This document shows, piece after piece, positions 4,588 to 26,590 of a stretch of DNA of 64,000 bases (position 1 is the stretch's first letter; every line of letters begins with the position of its first letter). Origin of the DNA: a virus; the IMG/VR virus record IMGVR_UViG_3300009181_004605, positions 5,133 through 69,132 of that record. One strand, given 5' to 3'. The notes below the pieces were generated by a model. That model was not told the DNA's origin. It saw only the letters and a list, made by a program, of their open reading frames with translations, and did not search any database. The position numbers and the translations under genes are program-made.

Positions 4588-5457
4588 GTGAAACATATCA
4601 ATCTTCCGGATCAAGATCCTCCATCACATAGAATGTTTAAAGAAGTTAATACTCCCCCTTTTTCTATTCCTAATGTCCATTTACCAAATGTAGAAGTATA
4701 TGATAATCTATTAGATGAACAGTTTCATAAAGAAGTGTATAATTATATAATTGATCAAGTGTGGTGTGAAGCATGGGGTGCAATTCCATTTGAAGTACAA
4801 CTTCGTCGACCAGCCGATTGGGACGATAGTTACGCTCATCACAGTTACCGGCGTCGTGGTTATATGCAACCACGATGCCCGCTTGGCAGTGATGAAAATA
4901 GCATACAGAGAGACCATCCTATAATATGGAAATTATGGCAATCTATAAATTCTCATCTTGATAATCGTTATGAAATTGCTGGCACTCCTGAAGGTATGCA
5001 TTGGGATAAAAAATGTCCAGATACTTTAAATCCCGATTTAAAACCTGGATGGCGAGTTTATGCGAACGGACAAGGAAACGATTTAATGGCATCTGGCGCT
5101 GCTATACATAGAGATACTCCTAATCTTGCTGATGAAAATACTGTTACTATAATATGGGTAGCAACTATAGAATGGTACCCAAGTTGGGGGCAAGAGATTA
5201 CGTTTTATCCCGAAGATCCAACTGGAGCGACCGGAGATCACCAACAATTTTTCAAAGGTGAGCGTAATCAAAATAGAAATTTTAGAATTGGATGGCCAGA
5301 CGACGGTAAAACTGTGTGTGTTAAACCAAATCGATTAATAGTATATGATGGTAGAACGCTACATTCAACAGCCACAGCTAAAAATTGGGAGATTACGGTA
5401 CAAAATCGTCGTATAGTGTTCAGAGCTAGATTAAAAAATACAGTACCACCAACATAA
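4588..5457 (+). CDS. 2OG-Fe(II) oxygenase superfamily protein
   Basis: HxD (IHRD), W-P-WG segment, KPNRLIVYDGRTLH distal His, terminal R..IVF; GTG start. Confidence 0.75.
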   Translation: MKHINLPDQDPPSHRMFKEVNTPPFSIPNVHLPNVEVYDNLLDEQFHKEVYNYIIDQVWCEAWGAIPFEVQLRRPADWDDSYAHHSYRRRGYMQPRCPLGSDENSIQRDHPIIWKLWQSINSHLDNRYEIAGTPEGMHWDKKCPDTLNPDLKPGWRVYANGQGNDLMASGAAIHRDTPNLADENTVTIIWVATIEWYPSWGQEITFYPEDPTGATGDHQQFFKGERNQNRNFRIGWPDDGKTVCVKPNRLIVYDGRTLHSTATAKNWEITVQNRRIVFRARLKNTVPPT

Positions 5458-5482
5458 CAATATATTTGTTGAGAACATAATA

Positions 5483-6082
5483 ATGCCACATTTTACATCT
5501 GATTGGTTTTCTAATAATGCATTAGTAAACTTCGATTATATCACCAACTATCTTAATAAAGAAAAACAAATCGATAGCATATTGGAAATAGGTAGCCACG
5601 AAGGCAGGAGTGCCTGTTGGATGTTGGAAAATATGTTAAGTGATACAGGCACAATGACTTGCATTGATCCCTTTGCTGATAGACCGGTTACTGCTTTTGC
5701 AGAAGATAGTATTCCGGAGGATAGAACGATCGAGAATCGTTTCCGGGCAAATATTGCCGAAGTCAAAGGTGCAAATCAAACAGTAAATGTCATGGTCGAT
5801 TTAAGTTTCTCTGCATTAGCACAATTGATAGTTGCTAAACAACAATACGATTTTATCTATGTGGATGGTACACATCATGCTGATGAAGTATTGGCTGATG
5901 CTGTGATGTGTTTTGGAATGTTACAGTCTGGTGGTGTTATGTTGTTCGACGACTATCTATGGGAAGATGATCCAAGGCATCTGGGGCGATGTAAAGCCAG
6001 TATCGATGCATTTGTAAATATGTTTTATGATAGACTTAAATTGGGCCTGGTAAATTATCAATTAGCAATAGTTAAGAAATAA
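5483..6082 (+). CDS. class I SAM-dependent methyltransferase (Methyltransf_24-like)
   Basis: LEIGSHEGRS motif I, YDFIYVDGTH, GGVMLFDDY. Confidence 0.85.
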   Translation: MPHFTSDWFSNNALVNFDYITNYLNKEKQIDSILEIGSHEGRSACWMLENMLSDTGTMTCIDPFADRPVTAFAEDSIPEDRTIENRFRANIAEVKGANQTVNVMVDLSFSALAQLIVAKQQYDFIYVDGTHHADEVLADAVMCFGMLQSGGVMLFDDYLWEDDPRHLGRCKASIDAFVNMFYDRLKLGLVNYQLAIVKK

Positions 6083-6094
6083 TTTCTTAAATAT

Positions 6095-7174
6095 ATGACA
6101 GGGCTTACAATCCCCTTTACTGGGCTTAAAAAACAGTATAACAATCTACGTGATGAAATATTAGCTGCCACCGACGAGGTATTGCGTTCCGGACAGTTAA
6201 TGAATGGAAATTACACAGCTGAATTTGAAGATTGGCTGGCCAAGAAGAATCACACCAAATATGCTATAACGTGTCATTCCGGAACCCAGGCATTAGAAAT
6301 TATCGCGCAATATCACGCGCAGAATGCACATACTAAATTCCCAGTTGTGCTACTCCCTGCAATGACGTATGTGGCCACGGCGAATGCATTTATTAGGGCA
6401 GGATGGTCTATTAGAATTCTCGACACTGATGCATATGGCATTATAGCAACAGACAACAAGCAGTTACGCGATCCTGCTCAAGCTGTTGTTTTGGTGGGAT
6501 TATATGGTGCAGCCCAAACAAGAGATGTATATTGGAAAGGAGAAGCCAGAATACTTATTGAGGATGCTGCACAGCATTGGCTGGCAAATGATTGCACAAG
6601 AGTCGGGTGTGCTGCTATAAGTTTTGACCCAATGAAGAATCTTTCCTGTTATGGAAATGGTGGTGCTGTTGTTACTGACGATTTATATCTGGCAGAATAT
6701 GCAAGAAGTTGGAGAGATAATGGCAAGCCCACACATGCAGATACCGGAACCAATAGTCGTATGAGTGAGATCGATTGTGCTCAGATGATGGTTAAAACCA
6801 AATATATCGATACATGGCAATCACAACGCAAAGAGATTGTGCATTATTGGATGGAACAGTTCGAGAAAGTGGGTATACGCAGCTTGATAGATAGCACGAA
6901 CTTTGCTCGGCATTGCTATCATAAGTTTGTTATAGACATTGATAACAGAGATATTGTTAAACAACAACTGGCCGACAGCAAGATCGAAACTCGCATACAC
7001 TATGCACAGCCCTTGCACGAATTGCCTGCTTATGCTGATCTTCCTGGTCCTGGTTTCTTTAGTAAAGCAAGTGCATTAAGTCGACGTGTTCTTTCTTTGC
7101 CATTGTATCCTGAGCTCACCGATCTTGAAGTTGAATATGTTGCTGATCACGTTATACGATATACTAAATTATAA
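6095..7174 (+). CDS. DegT/DnrJ/EryC1/StrS family PLP-dependent sugar aminotransferase
   Basis: SGTQAL, TYVATANA, IEDAAQ, SFDPMKNL (PLP lysine), GNGGAV, LSLPLYP. Confidence 0.92.
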   Translation: MTGLTIPFTGLKKQYNNLRDEILAATDEVLRSGQLMNGNYTAEFEDWLAKKNHTKYAITCHSGTQALEIIAQYHAQNAHTKFPVVLLPAMTYVATANAFIRAGWSIRILDTDAYGIIATDNKQLRDPAQAVVLVGLYGAAQTRDVYWKGEARILIEDAAQHWLANDCTRVGCAAISFDPMKNLSCYGNGGAVVTDDLYLAEYARSWRDNGKPTHADTGTNSRMSEIDCAQMMVKTKYIDTWQSQRKEIVHYWMEQFEKVGIRSLIDSTNFARHCYHKFVIDIDNRDIVKQQLADSKIETRIHYAQPLHELPAYADLPGPGFFSKASALSRRVLSLPLYPELTDLEVEYVADHVIRYTKL

Positions 7175-8739
7175 TACGTTAATAACCAATGCCACTCATA
7201 CGTCTTACGTAATTCTGTAAAATTTCCTTTAACTGACTTATAGTAAGTTACTGCATCTAATGCTCCTTGTTGACTTGCATCTGCAAATTTGCCAGTGCCA
7301 GGACGTTGCCAAATACCAAGTCTGTACTGCGATTCAACATCTGTCGTATTGCATTGTAGTTTTATAACTTCTCTAAATGCTGTCCTCCATGCTGTCCATG
7401 CATCAGCAGCATACTCTGCCACACCCGACAATACGGGAACAACCTCATGTTCCTGCTCAAGTGTAAAGTCTAAACCTTGTGCATTATTTTCCATGACTAA
7501 TCGTTTATTATATGCTATCATAGCTTGATGACCATATACTAAACCATTTACAGGGTTAAGGGCATGGAAGATATAATGCTTAGATTGTTGTAAGCGATCG
7601 GGTTGCCAATTCCAATTGAACTTATCATCAACTTTTAGTTTTGCAAACACACAAAAAGCCCAATCGGTATCACTTGCAAATAATGCAGCACGATATGCTT
7701 GTGCTCTACCAACAACTCCATCGATGCGTATCACACGATTGGCTGCATGTTTAGTAACTGTGAGTAGATGCTGCCAGTTTTGCTCGGCATTACTTTCTCC
7801 GTTACTGATAAACACTATATCAAGTGGTGCATCTGTTACGGATTTAGCATATGAACGATCAATGGTTGGATAATCGTATAATTGTGTCTTAAGGAAGTTC
7901 TTAGCTTCTCGTGGTACCACAACTGAACTGGCACCAATGCTTAATGGAATTATAGCTTTGGTTTCTGTACGCCAAAGGTTAATTGCAGGGGGATTAGAAA
8001 CTGCTGTATGGCGAACAAATTGCACAACAGGGTCCTGAAAATCATGTAACCATACTGCATCAACTTGGCTATCATGTGCATGCGATACAATTGGCATTGG
8101 CTTTCTAGGTACTACAATATCCTCAACAAAGTGTATGGTATCAAACCATTCTAAGAGAGCAAGTTTGGCAGTTTTGGCAAGAAAGGTAGGTACATGGACA
8201 TAAAAGGTATCACCAAATACTTGTTCATCGCTAGGGAATACGTGTAACATTTCTTGCTGCCATTCGCTTGGATGCCAGGTAAAATCAAAATTGCTATAAT
8301 CACAAACACTGGATATCACCCAAACGTATTCATCTGTTACTTTAGACAACACTCGTCGTAGGGTGCCGAGATAATCATTGATGTATCGGGTATGCTGCTG
8401 TACTTTTGGCAGACTATCATTCCCGTGATCGATGCCAATGATAGGAACTGAATGTATACGTGGAATTGCTGTATGTGTTCTGTTTATTTCTGTGTGACTA
8501 TGTTTGGGTATTAAGTATGTTGCACCATTTTCTTGATGTTGACTGGGCCATACGTGAGCTTGATGTGCTTGCCATTGCACCGGTTCAAAAAGAAAATCAA
8601 ACGTATCATAGTCCGATAAGTAGTTTATGATCCAACAGAATCTTGTTTTGCTTAATTGTTGTGCATGTTTGATAGAATCTGCTGCTTGCTCATGTGCAAA
8701 CAATTTAGGTGCGGTTCCAATATAAAATATATCAAACAT
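7147..8739 (-). CDS. multi-domain glycosyltransferase-like protein (internal repeats plus GT-A-like C-terminal domain)
   Basis: C-terminal domain (DIVFIS..E, NGLVYG, AWRTAFREVIKL) is paralogous to 23391-24317; repeated W/F..DY..FDF..P.W unit. Confidence 0.55.
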   Translation of the reverse strand: MFDIFYIGTAPKLFAHEQAADSIKHAQQLSKTRFCWIINYLSDYDTFDFLFEPVQWQAHQAHVWPSQHQENGATYLIPKHSHTEINRTHTAIPRIHSVPIIGIDHGNDSLPKVQQHTRYINDYLGTLRRVLSKVTDEYVWVISSVCDYSNFDFTWHPSEWQQEMLHVFPSDEQVFGDTFYVHVPTFLAKTAKLALLEWFDTIHFVEDIVVPRKPMPIVSHAHDSQVDAVWLHDFQDPVVQFVRHTAVSNPPAINLWRTETKAIIPLSIGASSVVVPREAKNFLKTQLYDYPTIDRSYAKSVTDAPLDIVFISNGESNAEQNWQHLLTVTKHAANRVIRIDGVVGRAQAYRAALFASDTDWAFCVFAKLKVDDKFNWNWQPDRLQQSKHYIFHALNPVNGLVYGHQAMIAYNKRLVMENNAQGLDFTLEQEHEVVPVLSGVAEYAADAWTAWRTAFREVIKLQCNTTDVESQYRLGIWQRPGTGKFADASQQGALDAVTYYKSVKGNFTELRKTYEWHWLLTYYNLVYRIT

Positions 8740-9862
8740 GATTCGAATTGATGAGATTTACCAAAATACCTTTAAGGCTTGGTTAAAACAAAATAAAGTA
8801 GGAACTCGGATATTGCTTTGCGATCCATTTGGCAGAAGTGATCCAGATAGTATAATTAGTTATGATGATCAATCTATACTACAACAAAATTATGTATTCT
8901 TTTTTGATCAAGAACCTATTGATTTAAAAAGACACAAGGCAACTATAGAACGCGCACAAGATATAAATTATCTATATCTGCTAAGGAAAGGGGTATCTTA
9001 TAAAACAAAACAAGTGTTACCGGGATGTATTGTTACCAGTGAAAAAGATAGCGAAATTATTGCACAAATTTGTGATCAGTACAACATACCGTCTGCATAT
9101 TATTTCTTTCATGGTTGGGCGGCATTAGATTGGTATCGTGGATATAATCAAACTTTCTTAATATCCTCTCCTGGAGAGAGAGTTATAAACAAAACATTTA
9201 TAATGCCAAATCGTATCATTGCTGGTCAGCGCCAACATAGATTACTAATGTTATATCACATTTTTAAGAGTAATCTTAAAGATAATTGGATTAGTTGTCC
9301 GGCGATATGTCCGGCAGAAAATATAGATATTAACACAGCGGTGCAATCATTAAGCGAAACTTATCCAGATATTTGTGATATTTTTTCCCGGAAAATATTT
9401 CCTATGCAATTTCCTGGAGAAATTGATCATCCCATGCATAGCTGTTGGTTAAGCCTATTCGATGAGAGTGCCGAATGTTTACTATATCTTGTTACAGAAA
9501 CTGTGGCAACAGGCAAACGATTACATCTTACAGAAAAAACATTTAAACCGATATGTTTGGAAATGCCATTTATTATAGTAGGGACAAGAGGCAGTTTAGA
9601 ATATCTACGTAGCTATGGATTTCAAACATTCGGCAGCTTATGGGACGAAAGTTATGATGATGAACATGATGACATCGTTCGACTGGAAAAGATTGCGCAA
9701 TTATTGAAAGAATTAGATGCACTATCACAGAAAGAAAAACAAGAGTTGTTTCATGCCAGTAACGATATAATACGACACAACTATAATCATTTTTACAATG
9801 GTGGATTTGAAAAAATACTATGGGCAGAGTTAATTCACATGCTTGAAACTCTTCCAATATAA
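8738..9862 (+). CDS. glycosyltransferase-like protein (GT-B/GT10-like C-terminus)
   Basis: LVTETV..HLTEKTFKPI..PFII.G...L.YLRSYGFQTF..WDESYD; paralog of 20130-21314. Confidence 0.5.
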   Translation: MIRIDEIYQNTFKAWLKQNKVGTRILLCDPFGRSDPDSIISYDDQSILQQNYVFFFDQEPIDLKRHKATIERAQDINYLYLLRKGVSYKTKQVLPGCIVTSEKDSEIIAQICDQYNIPSAYYFFHGWAALDWYRGYNQTFLISSPGERVINKTFIMPNRIIAGQRQHRLLMLYHIFKSNLKDNWISCPAICPAENIDINTAVQSLSETYPDICDIFSRKIFPMQFPGEIDHPMHSCWLSLFDESAECLLYLVTETVATGKRLHLTEKTFKPICLEMPFIIVGTRGSLEYLRSYGFQTFGSLWDESYDDEHDDIVRLEKIAQLLKELDALSQKEKQELFHASNDIIRHNYNHFYNGGFEKILWAELIHMLETLPI

Positions 9863-9872
9863 TAGGATAACT

Positions 9873-10901
9873 ATGAAAAAATTAATCAATGCATACAACA
9901 GTTGGGATCCGTTGGAGGAGGTTGTTGTCGGACGAGCATATTCTCCGGAATACTTTGACTTCATTGACAATGCACAAGTTCGCAATCAGTTACAACAGAT
10001 ACTGAACGAAACTGCAGAAGATCTCGACGCACTTAGCAAAGTTATTGAATCACATGGTGCGATTGTACGTCGACCAACTTTACCCAACATAGATAAATTC
10101 CAGCAATGGCAGATTAACGATAACGGAGCACCATTACCGCCATTAACTCCGCGTGATTGGCAAATCACACTTGGACAGAAACTATTACGTGTATTATCAA
10201 TAGCCGAACTGGATGAGATATGTAATGATTTTGGGGATCAAGTTATAAATCCCCACCGTACTCAATGGGACGAATCATGTATTCTCAACGGAGCCAGTGC
10301 CAGTTGCATAGTTCGTGTAGGACGTGATGTGTTTTTTGATAACAGTGATTATTTGCAGCCCAATCAAACACGTTGGATTGTTGATAATGTGTTAGGACCC
10401 GAATATCGTATCCACGAAGCCATTACAGACGGGCATGGTGATGCTGTGTTTGCTATACTTAAACCTGGTGTGATACTGTCAAGCAAACATGATTTTCATA
10501 TTAATCTTGCACATGATTTTCCCGGGTGGGACGTACTTAAACTTTGGGATAGTTCAATATGGGCCGCTATGGAAGTTGGCAAGTTTAAGTATGATGCTGA
10601 TCCCGGAGCATGGTATGTACAAGGACAAACACCAACTCCAGATTTTACAGAATTTGTTAACACATATCTTACTAAGTGGACAGGTTTTGTTGCCGAGACA
10701 GTATTTGATGTTAATTGTCTTGTGCTTGACGAACAACATGTTATATTCAGCGCATATAATAAATCGGTATTTGATTTCTGTCAGCAGCATAAAATTGAAC
10801 CCATTATATGTGAACTACGGCATAGTTATTTTTGGGACGGTGGAATAAGTTGTTGCACACAGGATCTGCGTCGGCGTGGTGGTATGGAAACCTATCTATG
10901 A
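9873..10901 (+). CDS. amidinotransferase (glycine / scyllo-inosamine-4-phosphate amidinotransferase family)
   Basis: N-terminal WDPLEEVVVG, TPRD, GHGD (catalytic His), C-terminal GGISCCT (catalytic Cys); likely start ATG 9873. Confidence 0.85.
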   Translation: MKKLINAYNSWDPLEEVVVGRAYSPEYFDFIDNAQVRNQLQQILNETAEDLDALSKVIESHGAIVRRPTLPNIDKFQQWQINDNGAPLPPLTPRDWQITLGQKLLRVLSIAELDEICNDFGDQVINPHRTQWDESCILNGASASCIVRVGRDVFFDNSDYLQPNQTRWIVDNVLGPEYRIHEAITDGHGDAVFAILKPGVILSSKHDFHINLAHDFPGWDVLKLWDSSIWAAMEVGKFKYDADPGAWYVQGQTPTPDFTEFVNTYLTKWTGFVAETVFDVNCLVLDEQHVIFSAYNKSVFDFCQQHKIEPIICELRHSYFWDGGISCCTQDLRRRGGMETYL

Positions 10902-12178
10902 ACAATCTCGACGAAATATATCAAGAACTAGGCTCTGATATATGTCTATGTCCTTTTTTAGGAGCATTTTATCAAACCAATAATGTAATACCCGATACTG
11001 TTCCTACTATGCCAAATAGCGTTAGGCCATGTAGTATTGTTATGTCCGAGGATCGGCATAAATGGGATATAATCAATGATAGTATCACCGATGCTAGAAA
11101 TACAGATGCATGGAAAAACATGCGTAAAGATTTTATACAAGGTAATTTTCATAAGATTAACGACTGTAGAGCTTGCAGTCATAATGAACAGGTGGGTGCA
11201 ACGAGCCCACGGCAACAAAATAATCAATTTTTAGGAAATTTCTTAACAATTGATATTGTTGATCACATTAAGACAATTATTGCAAATGATTATATTGTCA
11301 ATGATATTGTAACATTAGATTATTACCCCAGCAATTACTGTAACTATTCATGTATTATGTGTGCTGGTGGTGCAAGTAGCAAACGACAAATATTCGAAGT
11401 TACTGTATTAAATCAAAAAACAAAAATTATCCTAAATTCTACCGATCCAGATTTTTTCAATATATTAGAAAAAGTTCAGATTATTAATTTTACCGGCGGC
11501 GAAACTGTATTGCAACCACAAGTACATGATATTATAGATTATCTTATTGAACGTGGACTTAGTAAGAATATAATGATTACCTTGCTAACTAATGCCAGCA
11601 GTAGTCCACAAGAGTTGGATGAGAAATTTAAACAATTTAAGAAAGTTATTTACAATGTAAGTATCGATGGTATTGGCAATGTGATTGAATATCAACGTCG
11701 TGGATGTAATTGGAAAACTGTTGAGAAACATAGCTTGGAATTGATGCATCATCCATATATTTCTACTGTGGTTAACTATGTACTAACCGCTGTTAATGTT
11801 CTTAGTGCGATGGATTTTGTTAATTGGGCTTATGATAATAATTTTGGTCCAAAGAATTCTGGAGCAAATGGCGGCAGCTTTATAAACATAAGCCCGGTGT
11901 TTCGTGTAGATCATCTTGGACAAGGTGTGCTACCTCCAGCACTTAGAGAATTAGCATTGCATAGACTATATGCAGGTAAACAACGATTTGATAATCAAAC
12001 TGGATTTATGGAAAATTATTATAGAGGACTAGTAGATAAGATAATCGGTGTAATTGATTCTACTGCACATCAACCAGAATTTATACCATTATTTGTCAAT
12101 CATATACGCAAGGAAGATTCAGTGTCAAAAAAACATTTGATAGATGTTGTTCCTGAATGGGCGCCGTGGTTTAGTTAA
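10898..12178 (+). CDS. radical SAM protein with N-terminal twitch/SPASM-like domain (#1)
   Basis: CNYSCIMC, FTGGET, SIDG; N-terminal CLCPF..RPC..CRAC; ATGA-coupled start at 10898. Confidence 0.85.
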   Translation: MNNLDEIYQELGSDICLCPFLGAFYQTNNVIPDTVPTMPNSVRPCSIVMSEDRHKWDIINDSITDARNTDAWKNMRKDFIQGNFHKINDCRACSHNEQVGATSPRQQNNQFLGNFLTIDIVDHIKTIIANDYIVNDIVTLDYYPSNYCNYSCIMCAGGASSKRQIFEVTVLNQKTKIILNSTDPDFFNILEKVQIINFTGGETVLQPQVHDIIDYLIERGLSKNIMITLLTNASSSPQELDEKFKQFKKVIYNVSIDGIGNVIEYQRRGCNWKTVEKHSLELMHHPYISTVVNYVLTAVNVLSAMDFVNWAYDNNFGPKNSGANGGSFINISPVFRVDHLGQGVLPPALRELALHRLYAGKQRFDNQTGFMENYYRGLVDKIIGVIDSTAHQPEFIPLFVNHIRKEDSVSKKHLIDVVPEWAPWFS

Positions 12179-12944: not shown

Positions 12945-12945
12945 T

Positions 12946-13875
12946 TTAACTTGGCCAAGCTATTCGTGTATCGGCTAATAACAATGCTGCACCAATCGCA
13001 CTAGAACTATCACCAGGCACAGGTAATCCCCATACATTATCCCACAGTGGTAATATGTGTTGTCTAGCTTTGCTATTCATCGCACACCCGCCCATGTATA
13101 CCAAGTTGCGCTCACCGGTTAGTTCTAGTGCTTTATACATTACCCAGATTACTTGCTCTTCAAATACTCGTTGTACCGCAGTGGCGATGTCGTAACGATC
13201 ATGGCTTGATGATATTTTATGAGGCCAATTATAAACACCACGATGTAAATTATATCGTGCTTGCATTGGAGATTTGAAATAATCGGCTACAGTTTCATAA
13301 TATCTACTGTATGCACCATGATCGCTATCAAGTTGTAATAAATGTTCTTCTCCCAATGGTTTGTATCCTATTAGTTTAGTAAATGCAGAATAGAATAATC
13401 CAAGACTATTTGGGTAACTAACACTCCATAATTTTGTAAGCGTCTTGCCGGTGCCTTTCCAAATTGATGCTGATTCCCATTCACCTATTGCATCCAATAC
13501 TACAATAGCTGCACTGTCAAATGTTGATGTATAGAATCCGGCTGCTGCATGAGTCTTATGATGAGAAAAATATTTTATTGGAATCGACGGTATGGGTAAT
13601 TTTTCTAAATATACACTAGGAAGTACTTGACTATCAAATGCATCGGCATATTGTCCGGCATATAATTGACGAAACTTTTTAATCAGTGGGCGTTCATACC
13701 ACGCTATCTGATCTGGTTTACCATGAGCAAGAACATCATATATCAATGGCTTACATAATAGTTCATCGCCGGAATAGGTATAGTTTCGTGACTGTGCCCA
13801 AAATGCTAATTTATCATCCTTAATCACGGCGATACTTGCATCATGATTAAGAGCTGTAATACCCCAGGTTATCAT
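12946..13875 (-). CDS. carbamoyltransferase (NodU/CmcH/TobZ family), Kae1-like domain only
   Basis: HDAS, HHKTHAAAGF, LDAIGE, SLGLFYSAFT, GGCAMN, GDSSSAIGAA; 309 aa, no C-terminal YrdC-like domain. Confidence 0.85.
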   Translation of the reverse strand: MITWGITALNHDASIAVIKDDKLAFWAQSRNYTYSGDELLCKPLIYDVLAHGKPDQIAWYERPLIKKFRQLYAGQYADAFDSQVLPSVYLEKLPIPSIPIKYFSHHKTHAAAGFYTSTFDSAAIVVLDAIGEWESASIWKGTGKTLTKLWSVSYPNSLGLFYSAFTKLIGYKPLGEEHLLQLDSDHGAYSRYYETVADYFKSPMQARYNLHRGVYNWPHKISSSHDRYDIATAVQRVFEEQVIWVMYKALELTGERNLVYMGGCAMNSKARQHILPLWDNVWGLPVPGDSSSAIGAALLLADTRIAWPS

Positions 13876-13973
13876 TTATAAATGAATGGATCTCGTTTGC
13901 GCAACTCTTTAAGTTTACGCCGATAGCGTATCTCAAGTCGCATACGCTGATATAACTTTTTTAGCCAGTTCAT
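13872..13973 (-). CDS. 33-aa basic peptide MNWLKKLYQRMRLEIRYRRKLKELRKRDPFIYK (absent from ORF track)
   Basis: Read manually; ATGA overlaps at both ends with the flanking genes, AGGAG upstream; fills the gap exactly. Confidence 0.8.
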   Translation of the reverse strand: MNWLKKLYQRMRLEIRYRRKLKELRKRDPFIYK

Positions 13974-20133: not shown

Positions 20134-21314
20134 TTGATATGTTGATTGATAAATTGGTGGAACTGATTGGGCAACTCTCTAGGAACTTGGTGACGCATCT
20201 CAGTATACAACTCTTGATTGTATTTACATACATTATAACACTCTTTGTAGAAAATTGCAAGATCTTGTTGACATAAATCTTCAACCACTTCAGCTACACG
20301 TTCAATACGATCTTGACTGTTATCTATTACGTCAAATGATTCATCAATTACATGTCCGAATGTTTTAAACCCCAGCTTATGTATGTCTCGATAAAATCCT
20401 CGATTGGCCACAGCAATAAATGGATGTCCTACAGCAACAGGTTTCCAAATCTTTTCTGTTCTAAAGCTGTATGGGTAATTAAACACTGTTTCAGTTACTA
20501 GACTAAAGTAAGTATCTCTGTATGCTGTTCCATCTACTACAGCATCGCCCCAGGTGTTGTTGAACAAATTAAATTTAACAGTACCAGCAGAGGGCAAATG
20601 ATCTATATTGTTTCTAAATGCTGGAGTTTCGTATACCTTAGGTAGGAAATGCAGATCAATCTGGCGTTCCATAACGTCCGCACCGTTGTGCTCAAACGCC
20701 AATTTGATCATATTCATATTGTTAAAATTCTGCCAACATGTTTGTGGTAGATTTTTAATTAGCACAAGATCAGTGTCAAGATTTGTCCATAGACTATGAT
20801 CTAATAATCCACTTGCTTGAAATCGCTCTAACAGATATTTTCTATGGCTACGCATACGTCCATTTAAAAATAGGAAATTGTATGGTTTATCGGTGATTGC
20901 AAAATACTCCTCGATGCGGCTGCCAGCTTCAACATTCTCATCAAAGTCAAATATCTTGGGCAGAAAATATTCATACCTCATGTAGGGCCACGTAGAAGGA
21001 TCCATGTCGCCACCACCAATTAACAGTATACGGCCTTCTTCTATTAGGTTAATTAGGCCTTTGACAAAACACCAAGTAACCAGAGTTTCTGACCCTTCTG
21101 CGGCATTGTCTAATATCACAGTTACCTGGCCACTACGAGCCAGTTCTTGTATTTCATAATTGTAATTGTTGACCTGTTCACGACATATGATATACACAGC
21201 ACCGGGCACTATTTCATGCTGTCGAAGATCCCAAAATTCGTCGTCGGCCCAGGGCAATAATTCTCTATAGATTTCGCTATGTGTGTCTAATATAAGTTTA
21301 TGATTGCCGAGCAT
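20130..21314 (-). CDS. glycosyltransferase-like protein (GT-B/GT10-like C-terminus)
   Basis: FLFLNGRMRSHR, SLVTETV..TEKIWKPV..HPFI..GFKTF..IDESFD; paralog of 8738-9862. Confidence 0.5.
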   Translation of the reverse strand: MLGNHKLILDTHSEIYRELLPWADDEFWDLRQHEIVPGAVYIICREQVNNYNYEIQELARSGQVTVILDNAAEGSETLVTWCFVKGLINLIEEGRILLIGGGDMDPSTWPYMRYEYFLPKIFDFDENVEAGSRIEEYFAITDKPYNFLFLNGRMRSHRKYLLERFQASGLLDHSLWTNLDTDLVLIKNLPQTCWQNFNNMNMIKLAFEHNGADVMERQIDLHFLPKVYETPAFRNNIDHLPSAGTVKFNLFNNTWGDAVVDGTAYRDTYFSLVTETVFNYPYSFRTEKIWKPVAVGHPFIAVANRGFYRDIHKLGFKTFGHVIDESFDVIDNSQDRIERVAEVVEDLCQQDLAIFYKECYNVCKYNQELYTEMRHQVPRELPNQFHQFINQHIK

Positions 21315-22695
21315 GATACTTACATTCTGCCCACCATGAGCTCATTTCTGGAAATACAGTTAAGAAGTTGGTACCGTGTCTGCGGTCTGATTCCGTAAAG
21401 AAGCGATAAAAGTCTGCTTTATTTTTATTAAGATATACTGGATCTAACTTCTGTCCATCACGCATCCAAGCAATGTCGCGATCAAGACGTGCCAACTCAT
21501 AATCTTTAAATCCTTTAAAAGGAGCTTCTTCTGTTTCTAATTGTCGAATCATCCAAGCCCATATTAGTTCTAATTGATCTGCATAGCTTTCTGGTAACAA
21601 CTGTAGACTTTGCCACGTAGGTTGACGTAATACTGGAGTATCAAACCAGATACGTTGATAGGTATTGCTGTATAGATGTCGTAAGCCCAGTATAGCTGCA
21701 AATAAACTACCAAGCCCTGTAACAGATAGATTATTCATTGTAACAATGAATGTGATACTGTTACGTCCAGGAATTTCTGTTAAAAATTGATTAACTCGAT
21801 CCCATAACAGATTAAAATCTAATCCATTCCGTATATATTCTGCTTGTGATCCAAATGAATCTAAACTTACATATTGCATAAAATGTTCAACATTGTCTTT
21901 TTTACATAGGCGCTTGACATATCTAAGATATTTTTTCCAGCTTTTTTCATCGACTGAAAAGTTACTGGTAACATTTAAATGCAGATCTGGCTTTGGATTA
22001 GCTAACACATAGTCAAACACACGATAGGTATTTTTATCAAGCAATGGTTCGCCGCCAGTCATGCGGAAATGTTTTAGCTGTGGATATAGTTCAGGCCACC
22101 ATGCCCAGAATGCATCCACATAAGGATTAGGTTGTGAGTGTGGTATTGGCTTACGACTTCCTGCGAAATGTTCTGGAGCATTATGTGGTGTTGAAGTTGG
22201 GTAGGCTCCATGTCGATCTATTTCCTGCTGCCAAGTACTGCTGAACTGTGGACTGCAATAGCTACATTTAAGATTACAAGCATTGTTGAAATTAACTTCT
22301 ACATAACTAGGAATAACATCTTCGTCACCAGTTGAATTTTTAATAGCATCAAAATCTGCAGCAGCCCATGGTTCTCCAGAACGGTAGTGTCTATCACTAA
22401 GTTTGCCATTATCTTCCATATTCCAGCAGTAGCTACATTCTGCTGGACGTTCTTGTTTTAACATAATCTTACGTTGCTCTTTTTTGTATGCGGTATTATG
22501 TAATGCAGATGGATTGGACTTAATCGCAGATGGATCTATAGAATGTAGGGGAGGATGGTAACATGAGTTATTAAGCCCAGTTGGTAAGTGTAAGCTTACC
22601 TGTTTCCATTTAGCTAAACAAAGCGCATGTCCAAGTTTATCATGCATCGTTTCGGCATCGTTTAAAAACTTTGATTTAAAGTCGGGTGTTGTCAT
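21298..22695 (-). CDS. radical SAM protein with N-terminal twitch domain (#6)
   Basis: CLAKW..SCYHP..CSYC, then CNLKCSYC, TGGEPL; close paralog of #5; ATGA-coupled start at 22695. Confidence 0.9.
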   Translation of the reverse strand: MTTPDFKSKFLNDAETMHDKLGHALCLAKWKQVSLHLPTGLNNSCYHPPLHSIDPSAIKSNPSALHNTAYKKEQRKIMLKQERPAECSYCWNMEDNGKLSDRHYRSGEPWAAADFDAIKNSTGDEDVIPSYVEVNFNNACNLKCSYCSPQFSSTWQQEIDRHGAYPTSTPHNAPEHFAGSRKPIPHSQPNPYVDAFWAWWPELYPQLKHFRMTGGEPLLDKNTYRVFDYVLANPKPDLHLNVTSNFSVDEKSWKKYLRYVKRLCKKDNVEHFMQYVSLDSFGSQAEYIRNGLDFNLLWDRVNQFLTEIPGRNSITFIVTMNNLSVTGLGSLFAAILGLRHLYSNTYQRIWFDTPVLRQPTWQSLQLLPESYADQLELIWAWMIRQLETEEAPFKGFKDYELARLDRDIAWMRDGQKLDPVYLNKNKADFYRFFTESDRRHGTNFLTVFPEMSSWWAECKYHARQS

Positions 22696-23387
22696 ACTAA
22701 TAAATCCCATACTTTATTAAAAACTTCATCATCATAAAATTTTAATTCTTTTTGCATAGTACTTGAAAAAATATCTGTTCCTGTTCTGATATCAATGATA
22801 GTATCAGCGTGGGACAGGTCTATTGGATATTTAGAATAGTAATCCAGATGCCAGTCTATTATATCGTTCGCAGAATCGATTTTGTTAATATATTCATTTT
22901 TAATAGTGTTTAGCGGCACATCTGATTGATAAGGTGACAAGATTTTTTTTAAATCTTGATTAACTTCGTGTACTATCTCAATTGGCAACTTATTAAAATC
23001 TGCTATGCTCAAACAATCAGGCCAACTGCTATCTTTAATTATGTTATAATGAACAATTCTATCTATGATAGGCTCGATCTTTTTTTTAACGTGACGAGTA
23101 TGCCCTTCGAGAATCCATTCACGTTGCAAACATTTATTCAAGTCACCTAAAATTAAACAGATACTATGTTTGGGGAACTTAGATATAATATAACGAGAAT
23201 TTAAACAATGCGTTAATATATATTCTTGCCCTTTATCTACAATATCATCTAATAGATACCGGTTTTCAAAATACTGGGGAGTATTTACTTTACTGTCGTA
23301 TGTTACATTTGATTCTTGCCATTCTAAATTTTCCAACATACGTAGATATCGATTACCACCTGCACCCGGATAAAATGCAATAATCAC
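22692..23387 (-). CDS. hypothetical protein, possible P-loop/sulfotransferase-like fold
   Basis: N-terminal IIAFYPGAGGNR glycine loop; AT-rich; GTG start. Confidence 0.5.
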   Translation of the reverse strand: MIIAFYPGAGGNRYLRMLENLEWQESNVTYDSKVNTPQYFENRYLLDDIVDKGQEYILTHCLNSRYIISKFPKHSICLILGDLNKCLQREWILEGHTRHVKKKIEPIIDRIVHYNIIKDSSWPDCLSIADFNKLPIEIVHEVNQDLKKILSPYQSDVPLNTIKNEYINKIDSANDIIDWHLDYYSKYPIDLSHADTIIDIRTGTDIFSSTMQKELKFYDDEVFNKVWDLLV

Positions 23388-23390
23388 AAG

Positions 23391-24317
23391 TTACCAACCT
23401 TCTTGATTTCTAATTACATCAATCTCACGCGTCATAATACCAACATTGTGCCAATTGCTGCGATAATGCTGTTTGAAGAATTTGCTGCTATTCTCGTCTA
23501 ACATAGTAATTGGCAAACCAAGTTGCGTAACCAAATCTTCAGATACACGACCTGCTAATAAATCTGGGTCTGAATCCTGCACTGTGCCCCACAACTCAGC
23601 TAATGCATCAAAATCTTGAACCGTTGTATGATCCCAGGAAGTGAGCATGGTCATGTAAGTACCCATCCTGGCGCCGGCTATACTCCAACTTCCGTGCTCT
23701 ACATCACGGCCAACGTTGTGCCATATAGTAAGATGATCAAGATTACGCTGATGCACTTGAGTTTGAAATTCTGCTAATGTTGGCTTTACTCCCTTATTCA
23801 AGCACATCTTAACACCTTCCCTAAATCCTGCGCGCCAAGCATGATAGGATGATTGATCGGGATAGGTTGTGCTATAGCAATCATGCATGGGCCAATACAA
23901 CGGATCAAAGCAAAACTCTACTTGGGTTTCGGCTCGGCCATCTGTGGCTTCATGTGTTTGCATACGGTTAACAAAGTTTTTTGTCCAACTACTTATTCCA
24001 CCATTGCCGTACATGAGTCCATTTATATGATTACGGGCACGCCAACGATATACAGCCTGTTGCCATTCTGCAGTGGGAAATTCCAATGAAAGATTAAAAA
24101 ACTTTAGATCAGGCATGTTGTCGCCGTCAATTAGGATAAATCGATCAGTTGTGCTGGCTGCTGCTGCTGCTTTATGTGCTGCGTCACTGCCCCTAATCCC
24201 ATCAACTCGTTTGGCCCATGGGATCATATGTCGAATTTTAATCCAGAATTCTTCTCTATTTGGTTCATCAAATGTAAGGAAAATTACATCAAGATCGGCA
24301 ATATCAATTTGTGTCAT
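23391..24317 (-). CDS. GT-A-like glycosyltransferase
   Basis: DVIFLTFDE, RVDGIRGSDAAHKAAA, DxD (IDGDN), NGLMYGNGG, AWRAGFREGVKM. Confidence 0.6.
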   Translation of the reverse strand: MTQIDIADLDVIFLTFDEPNREEFWIKIRHMIPWAKRVDGIRGSDAAHKAAAAASTTDRFILIDGDNMPDLKFFNLSLEFPTAEWQQAVYRWRARNHINGLMYGNGGISSWTKNFVNRMQTHEATDGRAETQVEFCFDPLYWPMHDCYSTTYPDQSSYHAWRAGFREGVKMCLNKGVKPTLAEFQTQVHQRNLDHLTIWHNVGRDVEHGSWSIAGARMGTYMTMLTSWDHTTVQDFDALAELWGTVQDSDPDLLAGRVSEDLVTQLGLPITMLDENSSKFFKQHYRSNWHNVGIMTREIDVIRNQEGW

Positions 24318-24657
24318 AGTTCTTTAAACTCCACTGTGTATGTATCTGTGCAGCATCCACCACCACACATATATCTTGAGGATCGCAACAGGTCCCTGGG
24401 GATATTGGTACTAGCTTTTTTGACTGCGAGTTAATATCAATTTTTACCAATTGTCCGGCTACTACACGAACCGTCATCGATGCGGTTACATAAACTATTG
24501 GATCTACATCTATATATAATCCAGGCAGATCCTCCATAGTGTAGAATAATGGCATACCTTGTGCATCATGGTATAATCGTCGAAATATTACAGCTGGCGT
24601 ATCATGTGCCCAGTTATTAAATACTGCCCAAAAATTATCAGTGGTTTCGTTGCTCAC
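24304..24657 (-). CDS. hypothetical protein
   Basis: Probable GTG start at 24657 overlapping the upstream TAG; coupled within operon. Confidence 0.6.
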   Translation of the reverse strand: MSNETTDNFWAVFNNWAHDTPAVIFRRLYHDAQGMPLFYTMEDLPGLYIDVDPIVYVTASMTVRVVAGQLVKIDINSQSKKLVPISPGTCCDPQDICVVVDAAQIHTQWSLKNYDTN

Positions 24658-25442
24658 TATATACGCCAATCTTTGATATGGTAATGTACCGCACCCCATT
24701 GGGCTATGGTATTGATACGTAACCCAGGGTTAGTATGTTCCCACACAAGTTCTTGTGTCCAGTCCGATGTCCGAGTTGGGATGATGTGTTTTTTCATATG
24801 TACCATGGTTGGTCCATAACCCGGCGGTAATATAACTGTATCTGGACCTAGAATTACTGCGGCCACTGCATACACAACATCAGTTGTAGGATCTTGCTCG
24901 GCAAACTTTAACAACTTCTTAAATTGATCCCAGTTTTCAAATATCTTGCGCACCAACTCAAAAAATTCTCGAGCTGCATGACTTGCTCGCCAATATGTAA
25001 TACCGTTGTATACATCCGGCAACTGATTTTCATCAAACACACGTCGATAGAATCTGTTGCTACTTGTTTGGTCGTAAAAATCCCTGCAACCTTGACTGAT
25101 AACTATATCGCGATGTTCAAACAATGTCCACCAATGATCAATTGGGCTGGCAATGAACATGTCAGCTTCGAGTTTTATGGTTTGACGAAACGGTGATGCT
25201 GAAAAAACTTGCCAATCATTTGATAGTTTCCAATTACTATCAGGATCTTGATCTCCGTGCGGTAATTGAACCACATGATCAAATATTGGATCTGTTATAG
25301 ATTGATTTGTCAACAAGCAAACATTTGCAGCGGGATGCCAGTCCTTTATGCTGTGAGCAAGCTGCCGAGCACAGGCTATATAATCATTGTTGGCTGTGTT
25401 GATAGCAGGGATTAGATATCCGCGTTCACTGAGAATTGGCAA
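24657..25442 (-). CDS. GT-A (GT8-like/mannosyltransferase-like) glycosyltransferase
   Basis: RGYLIPA..DY..A..LA.SI, SPFRQTIKLEADM (ExD variant of DxD), D..YA, HMK. Confidence 0.65.
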   Translation of the reverse strand: MPILSERGYLIPAINTANNDYIACARQLAHSIKDWHPAANVCLLTNQSITDPIFDHVVQLPHGDQDPDSNWKLSNDWQVFSASPFRQTIKLEADMFIASPIDHWWTLFEHRDIVISQGCRDFYDQTSSNRFYRRVFDENQLPDVYNGITYWRASHAAREFFELVRKIFENWDQFKKLLKFAEQDPTTDVVYAVAAVILGPDTVILPPGYGPTMVHMKKHIIPTRTSDWTQELVWEHTNPGLRINTIAQWGAVHYHIKDWRI

Positions 25443-26232
25443 CTATATCTCCTAGATGGCGTTTTCCCATGGCGTGGAAATCTTGACCTTGCAATGTTAT
25501 CCAGCGTGGCTGTTTTTGTGCTGTAACAAACTCCACACGGTAATTGTCTTGACTTATCTCGACTACTGTGTGCTCGGGAGTAATACTGGCAAGATTCCAA
25601 GGTATAACAGGGTAGGTAAGGACATGTCCATTAACAAAACTTTGAGCTATTGTTAGGGCATGATCGTTGCGATATGCTGATCTTGCGTTGGCATAAAGAT
25701 TTACATAGTGTGGCCAATGATCACGTACCATACGCATGCTCTTAAAAATAAGATCCGCTGTGGTGCTGCGTTGAAATAACATAACAGTGGCCCAGGACAT
25801 AGGCATACGATGTTGACCAAAATAATTAAGATCATCAAAATCTCGTAAGTTGGTTATGTCATAGGCGCGTGAATGTGCAAGGAAGTCTTGATTTGCTGAA
25901 AACAAAGTGCTGAGTTGATCACTTGCCACCACATAATCTGCATCAAGTACCAAGGTCTGCTGCCATGGTGAAATGTTATATGCATCCACACGATCAGCAT
26001 TGTACCAAATCACATTACCATCAATGTCTGCAAATTGTCTGGTGCTACCAGGTTGTGGCTGCAGATGTATAATCTGATCGAATGTATGGTCGGTTGGTAG
26101 CACATCTGCATCAGTTACAATACACACCGGAATGTTTAAATGTCGATGTATATTTTTTGCAGACCAAGCAGCAAGTGACACATAGTCGATATGCTCATTA
26201 TTGAATGCAAATATCAACGCACCGGTTGTCAT
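25426..26232 (-). CDS. GT-A (GT8-like) glycosyltransferase
   Basis: GALIFA..DY..A, SPWQQTLVLDADY (DxD), RNDHAL, HAMGK; paralog of 24657-25442; start ATG 26232. Confidence 0.65.
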   Translation of the reverse strand: MTTGALIFAFNNEHIDYVSLAAWSAKNIHRHLNIPVCIVTDADVLPTDHTFDQIIHLQPQPGSTRQFADIDGNVIWYNADRVDAYNISPWQQTLVLDADYVVASDQLSTLFSANQDFLAHSRAYDITNLRDFDDLNYFGQHRMPMSWATVMLFQRSTTADLIFKSMRMVRDHWPHYVNLYANARSAYRNDHALTIAQSFVNGHVLTYPVIPWNLASITPEHTVVEISQDNYRVEFVTAQKQPRWITLQGQDFHAMGKRHLGDIVANSQ

Positions 26233-26537
26233 CTTTGTTGTGTAAGTGTGGTGTATTCTATCAGCCAGGCATTCATTTGTTCCTGCCATCGCTGTTGGCT
26301 TAATGCCATGAGTTCTGTGGTATCGATTTTTACCGGAGTCTCGTAAAGATCTAGTAACACTGCTTCACCAATTTTACCGCATGTAAATATAGTTGCCTGT
26401 AATTCTGGACCGGCTTGCCACATACCTCCGTGACTTGCAAATAGCAGTTTAGCTTGATATTTTTCTTTTAAAGTGCGTTTGGCCGCAGCATGATCAAATC
26501 GTGCTCGCGAATGTTTAATCAATTCATCAGTATCCAT
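26229..26537 (-). CDS. hypothetical protein, first gene of the GT/radical SAM operon
   Basis: ATG at 26537 directly behind a sigma70-like promoter; ATGA coupled to next gene. Confidence 0.7.
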   Translation of the reverse strand: MDTDELIKHSRARFDHAAAKRTLKEKYQAKLLFASHGGMWQAGPELQATIFTCGKIGEAVLLDLYETPVKIDTTELMALSQQRWQEQMNAWLIEYTTLTQQR

Positions 26538-26543
26538 GTGATA

Positions 26544-26572
26544 ATTATACAGGAAAATTAGGCAAAAGTAAA
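26544..26572 (-). promoter_or_regulatory. sigma70-type promoter TTTACT-N17-TATAAT
   Basis: Minus strand: TTTACT (26572-26567), 17 nt, TATAAT (26549-26544), ATG 6 nt downstream. Confidence 0.6.
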
Positions 26573-26590
26573 GGGCCAATTGGCCCTTTA
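26569..26590 (-). terminator. terminator hairpin at the end of the tail operon
   Basis: Perfect 22-bp palindrome TAAAGGGCCAATTGGCCCTTTA followed on the minus strand by CTTTT. Confidence 0.75.

Follow-up and report, generated by a model that had tools for sequence, protein, structure and literature searches.

The window analysed here is a 64-kb stretch (64,000 nucleotides, nt) of a 69-kb viral contig, IMG/VR record IMGVR_UViG_3300009181_004605, with a CheckV completeness of approximately 20%, and the subject of this report is an island of 22 closely packed open reading frames (ORFs) at positions 4588–26579 of the window. Neighbouring ORFs mostly overlap by 4–70 nt or sit 1–25 nt apart, and the largest intergenic gap within the island is 94 nt; an earlier reading made from the sequence only had ended the island at 26537, a coordinate that falls within the last small ORF (26229–26579). 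A plus-strand arm at 4588–12178, with one minus-strand gene inside it (7147–8739), and a minus-strand arm that runs from 26579 down to 12171 converge at 12171–12178. The minus-strand arm is contiguous and co-directional with fibre genes and contiguous with baseplate genes, in agreement with the tightly coupled operons next to tail genes described earlier, and a ThyX gene lies at the island edge. The island ORFs, named below by their lower coordinate (g4588 and so on), are listed here; GT stands for glycosyltransferase, SAM for S-adenosylmethionine, 2OG for 2-oxoglutarate, PLP for pyridoxal phosphate, SDR for short-chain dehydrogenase/reductase and aa for amino acids.

4588–5457, plus strand: 2OG-Fe(II) oxygenase-like protein, 289 aa; accessory, occupying the SDR position of relatives
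5483–6082, plus strand: class I SAM-dependent methyltransferase, 199 aa; accessory; Methyltransf_24 1.3e-20, Methyltransf_3 1.4e-5
6095–7174, plus strand: DegT/DnrJ/EryC1-family PLP sugar aminotransferase; core; Pfam 1.3e-57
7147–8739, minus strand: 530-aa protein with GT-A-like domain(s); core; predicted fold
8738–9862, plus strand: GT-B-fold glycosyltransferase-like protein; core; predicted fold
9843–10901, plus strand: arginine-type amidinotransferase (AGAT/StrB1/HsvA family); most conserved island gene
10832–12178, plus strand: N-terminal-twitch radical SAM protein no. 6; accessory; NF033640 206 bits
12171–12944, minus strand: secreted S11 D-Ala-D-Ala carboxypeptidase; accessory; Peptidase_S11 6.3e-38
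12946–13875, minus strand: truncated O-carbamoyltransferase, Kae1-like N-domain only, 309 aa; Carbam_trans_N 1.4e-29
13970–15097, minus strand: 375-aa conserved protein of unknown fold; core
15045–16325, minus strand: N-terminal-twitch radical SAM protein; core orthogroup; NF033640 279 bits
16318–17571, minus strand: N-terminal-twitch radical SAM protein; core orthogroup; NF033640 327 bits
17523–18809, minus strand: N-terminal-twitch radical SAM protein; core orthogroup; NF033640 396 bits
18796–20133, minus strand: N-terminal-twitch radical SAM protein; core orthogroup; NF033640 309 bits
20130–21314, minus strand: paralogue of the GT-B-like protein at 8738–9862, by paralogy
21298–22710, minus strand: N-terminal-twitch radical SAM protein; core orthogroup; NF033640 311 bits
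22692–23387, minus strand: 231-aa protein specific to the window's lineage; no family match
23391–24317, minus strand: GT-A-like paralogue of the C-terminal half of 7147–8739, by paralogy
24304–24699, minus strand: 131-aa conserved protein; no family match; 39–46% identity in relatives G001–G003
24657–26289, minus strand: two paralogous ORFs, 24657–25442 and 25426–26289 (25% identity, E 5e-10); phrog_1903, function unknown
26229–26579, minus strand: 116-aa conserved protein, last before the fibre genes; no family match; 53–59% identity in G001–G003

The window is a myovirus fragment. Its ORF at 44399–47824 encodes a baseplate wedge protein (PHROG 10646, 1e-279), and more baseplate and virion PHROGs match downstream. 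This protein is approximately 33–34% identical to its counterparts in cultured jumbo phages, including Phosso, Atu_ph07, fHe-Yen9 and PBECO4, and 63–79% identical to those encoded in G001–G005 (five uncultured IMG/VR genomes, 252–364 kb in size, four of them 98–100% complete), which places the phage in an uncultured clade of jumbo phages of approximately 340 kb. A megablast search of the INPHARED collection with the island DNA found no match to any isolated phage. The clade is very abundant in metagenomes and cosmopolitan: single island proteins have 4427 (g13970) and 5650 homologue clusters in a metagenomic protein collection, and none of the 120 best listed homologues in either search carries a Pfam annotation.

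Within this clade the island is a core module that is vertically inherited, not random cargo. An IMG/VR scan with the amidinotransferase returned 113 relatives, 80 of which (75–81% identical) were fetched; a scan with one radical SAM gene added nine loci, and the resulting 89 loci were compared by tblastn. They show a fixed order, in which ThyX, DegT, g7147 (minus strand), g8738 and the amidinotransferase are followed by the converging carbamoyltransferase, g13970, four radical SAM genes, g20130 and the fifth radical SAM gene. In 60 kb fetched from each of G001–G003 (337–364 kb; two complete, one 98%), the window's gene order recurs through the whole island, its small ORFs, both fibre-like proteins, g29004, a giant ORF and the baseplate genes. 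Identities to the window in these three genomes are 79–81% for the amidinotransferase, 49–80% for the radical SAM proteins (74–80% for g21298), 70–75% for g23391, 57–65% for DegT and 35–65% for the other GT-like genes. Over the island proteins as a set, identity is 45–81%; such conservation matches that of the baseplate wedge (63–79%), and the island seems to evolve like the structural genes. Order and orientation are kept in at least 80 viral contigs and in the three jumbo genomes, which clearly speaks against random assortment and agrees with the coherent sugar-tailoring system proposed by the sequence-only reading.

The window carries a derived, atypical variant of this module, because the SDR of relatives has been replaced, the carbamoyltransferase is truncated and several genes are rare or confined to its lineage. 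The place of the SDR is taken by g4588 and the methyltransferase, neither of which has homologues in any of the 89 loci; the same holds for g22692. Radical SAM gene no. 6 (10832–12178) occurs in 5 of 80 loci (L017, L027, L041, L049 and L062), and only three of the 89 loci, one of them (L074) within the genome G002, have the S11 carboxypeptidase; this protein is encoded where the two arms converge, has an N-terminal hydrophobic leader and may have nothing to do with the pathway.

The island carries an unusual radical SAM array. All six ORFs that the sequence-only reading had taken for radical SAM/twitch enzymes score 206–396 bits over positions 1–398 of the NCBIfam model NF033640 (N_Twi_rSAM, 'twitch domain-containing radical SAM protein'; cut-off 170 bits), and none of 14 control genomes has a copy that reaches the cut-off, which puts a cluster of six within 12 kb far beyond chance. 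Pairwise identity among the six paralogues is only 20–33%, with C34, C52, C94 and C97, the CxxxCxxC motif (C148, C152 and C155) and GGE invariant across them. CxxxCxxC and GGE are kept in every near-full-length orthologue, including all 73 orthologues of g15045, all 54 of g18796 and the near-full-length ones of g16318 (51/51). In three of the six copies a Pfam SPASM match sits N-terminal to the Radical_SAM core, for example at residues 34–98 of g17523 (2.6e-12). Mis-split ORFs or stop-codon recoding were rejected as the source of this N-terminal SPASM, given the end-to-end NF033640 matches and the equal lengths of orthologues. A quick maximum-likelihood tree of 66 rows, in which 8 of the 89 loci represent the phages and 13 of 80 the bacteria, groups each window paralogue with its positional orthologues, with Shimodaira–Hasegawa-like approximate likelihood-ratio test (SH-aLRT) values of 97–100, and sets the g15045 orthologues apart as a separate clade. 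Genomes G001–G005 encode 7–10 N_Twi_rSAM genes each above the cut-off, five in the island and 2–5 elsewhere; the copies outside the island are scattered, in G002 for instance at about 182, 188, 237 and 247 kb.

Among PDB sequences, the full-length radical SAM profile found viperin, SkfB, MoaA and BlsE as its nearest matches, all with weak scores, and reached BtrN at E 0.005 only; the profile of the N-terminal twitch domain alone found nothing at E up to 1, BtrN included, so that the similarity to BtrN is weak. A scan of GTDB genomes with three paralogues gave 425 N_Twi_rSAM relatives, and 80, comprising 77 non-phage loci and 3 phage contigs of the same clade, were kept. Four bacterial loci were annotated, two from isolates and two from metagenome-assembled genomes (MAGs); the MAG loci were chosen for their DegT gene, so the sample is non-random. 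Three of the four hold GT2 and two hold DegT. The Paenibacillus locus has an acyl carrier protein (ACP), two ketosynthases, an SDR, GT2, a thioesterase and a phosphopantetheinyl transferase; the Eubacterium locus has an acyl-AMP ligase, an ABC transporter, GT2, two other radical SAM genes, PIG-L, ACPs and an acyltransferase. In the Saprospiraceae MAG, KASIII, GT2, DegT, an SDR, two PhyH dioxygenases and UbiA precede three N_Twi_rSAM genes, and in the Oligoflexia MAG DegT adjoins five. The family appears to occur in glycoconjugate or natural-product tailoring clusters and not in obvious peptide-maturation clusters.

Tandem arrays of 4–8 N_Twi_rSAM copies are also found on contigs binned to Bacteriovoracaceae, Oligoflexia and Elusimicrobia. 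They resemble the phage array in family, in tandem copies and in that some copies are sister to phage orthogroups, and differ from it in their neighbours, which form ACP/ketosynthase/GT2 and KASIII/GT2/DegT/SDR/PhyH/UbiA clusters. Copies on a Bacteriovoracaceae-binned contig (L109) and on L107 are sister to individual phage orthogroups (SH-aLRT 98–100), which suggests movement of the differentiated array as a single unit. L109 (DIVA01000093.1) carries eight tandem genes, several of them sister to single phage orthogroups, and an Elusimicrobia contig (among L107 and L115) carries fused N_Twi_rSAM forms of approximately 970–1080 aa. The only cultured phages found with distant homologues (22% identity) are Vibrio phage K566 (L001, 161.5–166 kb) and Ralstonia phage RsoM2USA (L002, 216.6–218.7 kb). 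Vibrio phages K566 and K567 have three copies in a row, one RsoM2USA copy adjoins a homologue of the GT-A-like C-terminal domain, and the copies in all three phages are annotated as hypothetical or radical SAM.

Radical SAM enzymes of this kind could also act on protein, introducing crosslinks, epimerizations or oxidations into fibre proteins while the sugar genes serve a separate function. Such a role would fit the SPASM matches in half of the copies, the weak similarity to SkfB, YydG and other peptide maturases, and the very large structural proteins that the radical SAM genes adjoin. We consider it highly improbable, in that no recognition element of the RiPP type (peptides made on ribosomes and modified after translation) and no precursor-like small ORF was detected in the island, GT-like genes are interspersed among the radical SAM genes and translationally coupled to them, the bacterial contexts examined are GT/DegT/ACP and not peptide clusters, and the best core matches (viperin, MoaA and BlsE) act on nucleotides or sugars.

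The enzymes that accompany the array are those of sugar tailoring, and the DegT aminotransferase, amidinotransferase and SAM methyltransferase of the sequence-only reading were all borne out. The DegT protein matches its Pfam family over its full length (196 bits, with a gathering score of 19.8) and PseC-like proteins at 3.6e-39, below the equivalog cut-off. Its best PDB match is 7b0d (5.5e-43), deposited as 'glutamine--scyllo-inositol transaminase', followed by the nucleoside diphosphate (NDP)-sugar 3-aminotransferases QdtB, DesV-like and WbpE, with 4-aminotransferases more distant. The gene was found in 60 loci; the segment SF(D/N)P(M/T/V)K, the lysine of which we take to be the PLP lysine, is present in 56 of 58 orthologues, and the looser S[FL]xxxK in 58/58. 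Each of the 47 loci with ThyX as well as DegT has an SDR between the two; it matches PF01370 and comes nearest to dTDP-glucose 4,6-dehydratase (TIGR01181, 6.4e-33, below the equivalog cut-off). A dehydratase followed by a DegT aminotransferase is the classical route to NDP-amino-deoxy-sugars. Genome-wide, the relatives carry 2–4 SDRs, and they have a GT8 gene outside the island.

The amidinotransferase ORF (9843–10901) has no Pfam match, and its identity is settled by a profile built with ten orthologues, which matches human AGAT (9e-23), HsvA (1.9e-18), SxtG (1.4e-17) and StrB1 (1.6e-17) in the PDB, HsvA and StrB1 over positions 2–221 and 276–339. C337, H198 and D200/D162 are invariant and presumably form the catalytic triad. 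A second amidinotransferase paralogue, 31–32% identical to the conserved one, occurs in some relatives (L027:5054-6070, L060:3473-4489 and L061:3626-4642), in L027 directly upstream of DegT. The carbamoyltransferase domain noted earlier was confirmed as an N-domain only. The family profile matches NovN (1.3e-71), then GdmN and TobZ, and 74 of 76 homologues are 480–519 aa long, with the two-domain O-carbamoyltransferase architecture (Kae1-like N-domain and YrdC-like C-domain) that is present in relatives and absent in the window. The 309-aa window ORF and the copy in a 96%-identical relative (L003) comprise the N-domain only and are 33–41% identical to the rest; judged by its domain content, the window's enzyme is probably inactive or partner-dependent. 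The 2OG-Fe(II) oxygenase of the sequence-only reading stands in part. An HxD...H pattern is seen in g4588, and among 120 homologues there are 16 with a precomputed 2OG-FeII_Oxy Pfam annotation (PF13640/PF13661); its own Pfam match (DUF6445, 0.0033) is below threshold and a PDB search gave no match, leaving the assignment as a putative oxygenase weakly supported.

Twitch radical SAM enzymes, DegT aminotransferases, arginine amidinotransferases and O-carbamoyltransferases co-occur in aminoglycoside clusters (BtrN/BtrR, StrB1/StsC and TobZ), and the logic of oxidizing, transaminating and amidinating makes these a good chemical analogy. The aminocyclitol or aminoglycoside flavour that the island had been given was not supported, however. 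Neither the contig nor any of four relatives of at least 98% completeness has a DHQS-type cyclase (PF01761) or an inositol-phosphate synthase (PF07994), in searches with positive controls that rang in 11 and 5 of 14 genomes, respectively, and the twitch domain, which by itself finds no BtrN, is N-terminal in the island and not C-terminal. The island also has many more GTs, no resistance or export genes, and a phage structural module as its context.

The only cultured-phage analogue found is the cyanophage S-SCSM2R, in which the same three families are clustered; its report lists ORF305 as DegT-like, ORF306 as radical SAM and ORF309 as an amidinotransferase, and calls them 'antibiotic synthesis genes' of unknown role (PMC12801897). 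A second amidinotransferase, ORF266, was detected in the virion proteome according to the same report (PMC12801897). We found ORF266 to be 31% identical to the window's amidinotransferase and to lie among GT2, GT11, GT24, KdsA/KdsB and 2OG genes. S-SCSM2R is a T4-like cyanophage and not a member of the jumbo clade, and its cluster has three genes, against about 20 in the island, without the five-fold radical SAM array or the carbamoyltransferase. Another paper notes 12 radical SAM genes in a T4-like viral genome of marine origin (PMC5332604).

These parallels raise the possibility of a free small-molecule product, with nothing attached to the virion: a diffusible pseudo-oligosaccharide, a glycolipid or a guanidino/carbamoyl natural product, possibly used to block competing phages, to manipulate the host or as a signal. 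All solved relatives of the amidinotransferase (AGAT, StrB1, HsvA and SxtG) and of the carbamoyltransferase (NovN, GdmN and TobZ) act on small molecules and not on protein-attached glycans; bacterial N_Twi_rSAM genes lie in ACP/ketosynthase/GT2/thioesterase clusters in Paenibacillus and Eubacterium, and the 'antibiotic' label of the cyanophage genes points the same way (PMC12801897). We nevertheless judge a free product unlikely: the cyclase and inositol-phosphate synthase are absent, Pfam searches of the island found no ACP, ketosynthase, non-ribosomal peptide synthetase, exporter or self-resistance gene, four to six GT-like genes are many for a small molecule, and the module is core, seems to evolve like structural genes and is contiguous with fibre genes.

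Glycosyl transfer is a further predicted capacity of the island. The six GT-like ORFs form three paralogue pairs, and a predicted GT-like fold was obtained for both ORFs that were modelled. The AlphaFold model of g8738, from an alignment with 24 orthologues, has a predicted local distance difference test (pLDDT) score of 89.5. In a Foldseek search of the PDB, the four matches at E<=0.001 fall without exception among GT-B enzymes and GT-B-like accessory proteins (SdgB; the Gap1 chain of the Gap123 complex), followed by T4 beta-glucosyltransferase, WaaG and MurG (best probabilities 0.95–0.99, template-modelling (TM) scores 0.3–0.4), and among the 40 PDB matches listed nearly all are GT-B folds, Gap1/Asp1 included. 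Against BFVD, g8738 matches 22 uncharacterized proteins of uncultured phages and then giant-virus glycosyltransferases. The AlphaFold2 model of g7147, a gene found in 68 loci, has a pLDDT of 79 and a predicted disordered stretch in its first approximately 95 residues; it matches Mimivirus R699, ArnC, the two-domain chondroitin polymerase K4CP, LH3, PBCV-1 A64R and GtrB with probabilities of 0.7–1.0, yet with TM-scores of only 0.15–0.2 and high root-mean-square deviations, so that GT-A is a tentative assignment. By sequence g7147 has no Pfam or PDB match; a Pfam scan of 25 family members gave no consistent family, with a GT2 match in one of them at 0.078, and the ESM Atlas yielded only functionally uncharacterized viral clusters, plus weak leads to GT2/GT92 at 0.84–0.85. 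Two copies of a conserved FDF-x-WHP-type motif, to which no known domain matches, are present in its N-terminal half.

By paralogy alone, g20130 and g23391 are supported as putatively GT-B-like and GT-A-like, respectively: g20130 is 39% identical to g8738 over the C-terminal 76 aa (E 2e-12) and has 35–46% identity at the same position in G001–G003, and g23391 is 27% identical to g7147 over 211 aa (E 1.6e-11). Four of the six GTs proposed earlier thus have support from predicted folds or paralogy, and the third pair, g24657 and g25426, lacks fold or profile support. These two share a conserved [E/D]-x-D-like motif and an invariant histidine; their family does not match the GT-A family of g7147 in hhalign (probability 0.1), and a GT8 hidden Markov model (HMM) matches other genes in the relatives. 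Searches of Pfam, PHROG, PDB and the ESM Atlas with g13970 gave no match, no family match was found for g22692, g24304 or g26229, and profiles of the family alignments A2, A3, A4 and A5 found nothing significant among PDB sequences.

A soluble phage GT-B enzyme of about 350 aa recalls T4 DNA glucosylation, and T4 DNA beta-glucosyltransferase gives the highest target-normalized TM-score in the g8738 list (0.38–0.42, probability 0.98–0.99). The island could accordingly place a cationic (amino or guanidino) sugar on phage bases, protecting them from restriction or CRISPR and helping a 340-kb genome to be packaged. Phages with cationic DNA modifications are known, the island enzymes are soluble and cytoplasmic, and ThyX lies at the island edge. 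ThyX, however, makes ordinary dTMP, and the known entry points to base hypermodification are missing: families PF00303 (ThyA-type, including hydroxymethylases), PF00145 (C5 DNA methyltransferases) and PF01702 (TGT/DpdA) are absent in 5/5 relatives, four of them at least 98% complete, in searches whose positive controls rang, and PF12851 (TET/JBP) was not found in the same five in a search without a ringing positive control. With no hydroxymethylase or other base-activating enzyme in the clade relatives, a gene set far larger than that of T4 glucosylation, and contiguity with fibre genes and not with replication genes, DNA is a decidedly unlikely acceptor.

Membrane steps are likewise missing from the island. 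No convincing membrane-like hydrophobic 19-mer was found in any island enzyme in a (crude) Kyte–Doolittle scan, and Pfam searches of the island found no flippase, polymerase/ligase or initiating phosphoglycosyltransferase family, which argues against an undecaprenyl-phosphate route to surface polysaccharide. Remodelling of the host envelope, that is, alteration of lipopolysaccharide, capsule or peptidoglycan in aid of, for example, superinfection exclusion or the freeing of released virions, would make sense of the secreted S11 DD-carboxypeptidase, of the KdsA/KdsB genes next to the cyanophage amidinotransferase homologue and of the match of the GT-A model to the polyprenyl-phosphate transferases ArnC and GtrB. 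Against it stand the lack of any predicted transmembrane segment, the absence from g7147 of the C-terminal membrane helices of ArnC and GtrB, and the accessory, non-core status of the S11 peptidase, and we hold it to be very unlikely.

Together, the gene families, the two predicted GT folds, the synteny and conservation, and the absence of membrane steps lead us to read the island as a conserved, soluble module for sugar tailoring and glycosyl transfer, with a probability of roughly 70%. Such a module would be a soluble glycan factory working in the host cytoplasm, and we infer the following order of reactions. In most relatives, the 4,6-dehydratase-like SDR and DegT would convert host NDP-hexoses into amino sugars; with the SDR replaced, the keto-sugar in the window would have to be supplied by the host or arise by radical SAM or 2OG oxidation. 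The arginine-type amidinotransferase would turn a primary amine into a guanidino group, the NovN/TobZ-type enzyme would O-carbamoylate hydroxyls, and the product would be methylated in the window's lineage. C–H-activating tailoring of sugar residues, which may consist of oxidation, epimerization, or deoxygenation/dehydration, would fall to the radical SAM enzymes with an N-terminal twitch; five of these are conserved (the window has six), and each represents an ancient orthogroup of its own. Four to six GT-A/GT-B transferases would assemble the oligosaccharide, which would most likely be attached to the virion fibre proteins encoded immediately upstream in the same direction.

Several observations weigh against this reading. 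The window's 69-kb contig holds no PF01370 gene anywhere and no remnant of the YrdC-like, carbamoyl-AMP-forming C-domain, and because both the SDR and this domain are missing, the pathway of the relatives may not run unchanged in the window. No NDP-sugar pyrophosphorylase was found in the relatives, so host nucleotide sugars must feed the pathway. The TM-scores of g8738 and g7147 are low (0.15–0.4) despite high probabilities; g24657 and g25426 match neither a PDB profile nor the GT8 HMM, and the third GT pair and four conserved ORFs are without an assignable fold. Literature searches found no N_Twi_rSAM member with a described reaction; a DegT homologue lies within 8 kb at only 2 of 77 bacterial N_Twi_rSAM loci, and ACP/ketosynthase clusters of a lipid or polyketide-like kind make up two of the four contexts that were annotated. 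The small-molecule substrates of the solved amidino- and carbamoyltransferases, given above, count here as well. Finally, neither Ser/Thr-rich repeats nor any other hallmark of glycosylation is seen in the fibre proteins, the presumed acceptor, or in the giant ORF.

The genes between the island and the baseplate wedge bear on the acceptor.

26609–27589 and 27600–28958, minus strand: tail-fibre-like proteins; 27600–28958 has PHROG virion structural and tail-fibre matches
29004–29609, minus strand: conserved virion-module protein (g29004); phrog_11259 2.5e-67
29772–44399, minus strand: giant structural ORF, 4875 aa, between the fibre genes and the baseplate wedge

The fibre-like proteins and g29004 are in the same order in G001–G003 and in L003–L011. 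No Pfam domain was found in the giant ORF, which is 42–62% identical in relatives and matches there in 2–3 pieces. The island is contiguous with the fibre genes, its structural matches have the character of virus glycosylation and of protein O-glycosyltransferases, and an amidinotransferase is reported from the cyanophage virion proteome; on these grounds we propose that the product of the module decorates the virion fibre proteins, a fuller claim that we advance tentatively, at somewhat under even odds.

The closest analogues of a soluble sugar-tailoring and glycosyl-transfer module of this kind are the glycosylation machinery of giant viruses and the three-gene cluster of S-SCSM2R. Mimivirus and PBCV-1 encode a soluble 4,6-dehydratase, a DegT-type aminotransferase and several GT-A/GT-B enzymes, and decorate virion proteins in the cytoplasm. 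The island shares with them soluble sugar-nucleotide tailoring enzymes and several GTs encoded by a large virus, Mimivirus R699 and PBCV-1 A64R rank with the best structural matches to g7147, and giant-virus GTs match g8738; the island differs in belonging to a bacteriophage and in that its acceptor is a proposed one. We know of no radical SAM array, amidinotransferase or carbamoyltransferase in the giant-virus systems. Full-text literature searches found no description of the module or of the function of the N-terminal-twitch family, in keeping with the earlier view of an undescribed system, and as far as our searches reach a differentiated radical SAM array with amidino- and carbamoyltransferases in a phage structural module is undescribed. 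In its most specific form, the proposal would be that a clade of approximately 340-kb phages uses five or more differentiated radical SAM enzymes and an amidinotransferase to build a guanidinylated, carbamoylated amino-sugar oligosaccharide on its virion fibres, which taken as a whole is doubtful.

If true, phages, and not only giant eukaryotic viruses, would carry complete, conserved glycan-building machinery in their core structural programme. The module would give a first biological handle on the N_Twi_rSAM family, which has hundreds of bacterial members and 7–10 copies per jumbo phage genome. Guanidino and carbamoyl sugars would be a possible new virion surface chemistry, with bearing on adsorption, host range and evasion of immunity or defence, and radical-SAM-tailored cationic glycan chemistry is not known from any virus particle or from protein glycosylation generally. 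Given the abundance of the clade, such chemistry would be ecologically widespread. Even with DNA as the acceptor or a free metabolite as the product, the module would be an undescribed phage pathway.

Sigma-70 promoter-like sites number 107, against 81.8 in shuffles (standard deviation 8.2), a modest excess with no informative positions; terminators were about as many as in the shuffles, and a single T4 late-promoter motif TATAAATA is present where 9.5 would be expected. The start codons of the divergent genes 7147–8739 (minus strand) and 8738–9862 (plus strand) overlap by two bases, with no room for an intergenic promoter; overlapping divergent starts recur in some relatives (G002), and others have a gap.

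The three same-clade contigs of the GTDB scan, which carry the island, came from bacterial bins and are likely to be phage contigs binned with bacteria. Two of them (L102 and L103; NZ_JBBAKG010000001 and NZ_JBBAKG010000003), of 183 kb and 148 kb, were binned in one Haliscomenobacter MAG and sum to about one phage genome, which is a host lead and no more; the other (L104) was binned in a Legionellales MAG. Identity across L102–L104 is 53–72%. In G001 and G005 the baseplate wedge matches in two pieces within one longer frame (G001:C1:289755-293432 and G005:C1:172902-176630; 1230 and 1250 aa), which implies an insertion of roughly 70–100 residues near residue 540. Upstream of ThyX, at 1280–2590 of the window (plus strand), a DUF2201 putative metallopeptidase is fused to a VWA-like domain (4e-35 and 4e-18), and this gene is kept at 63–79% identity in relatives.

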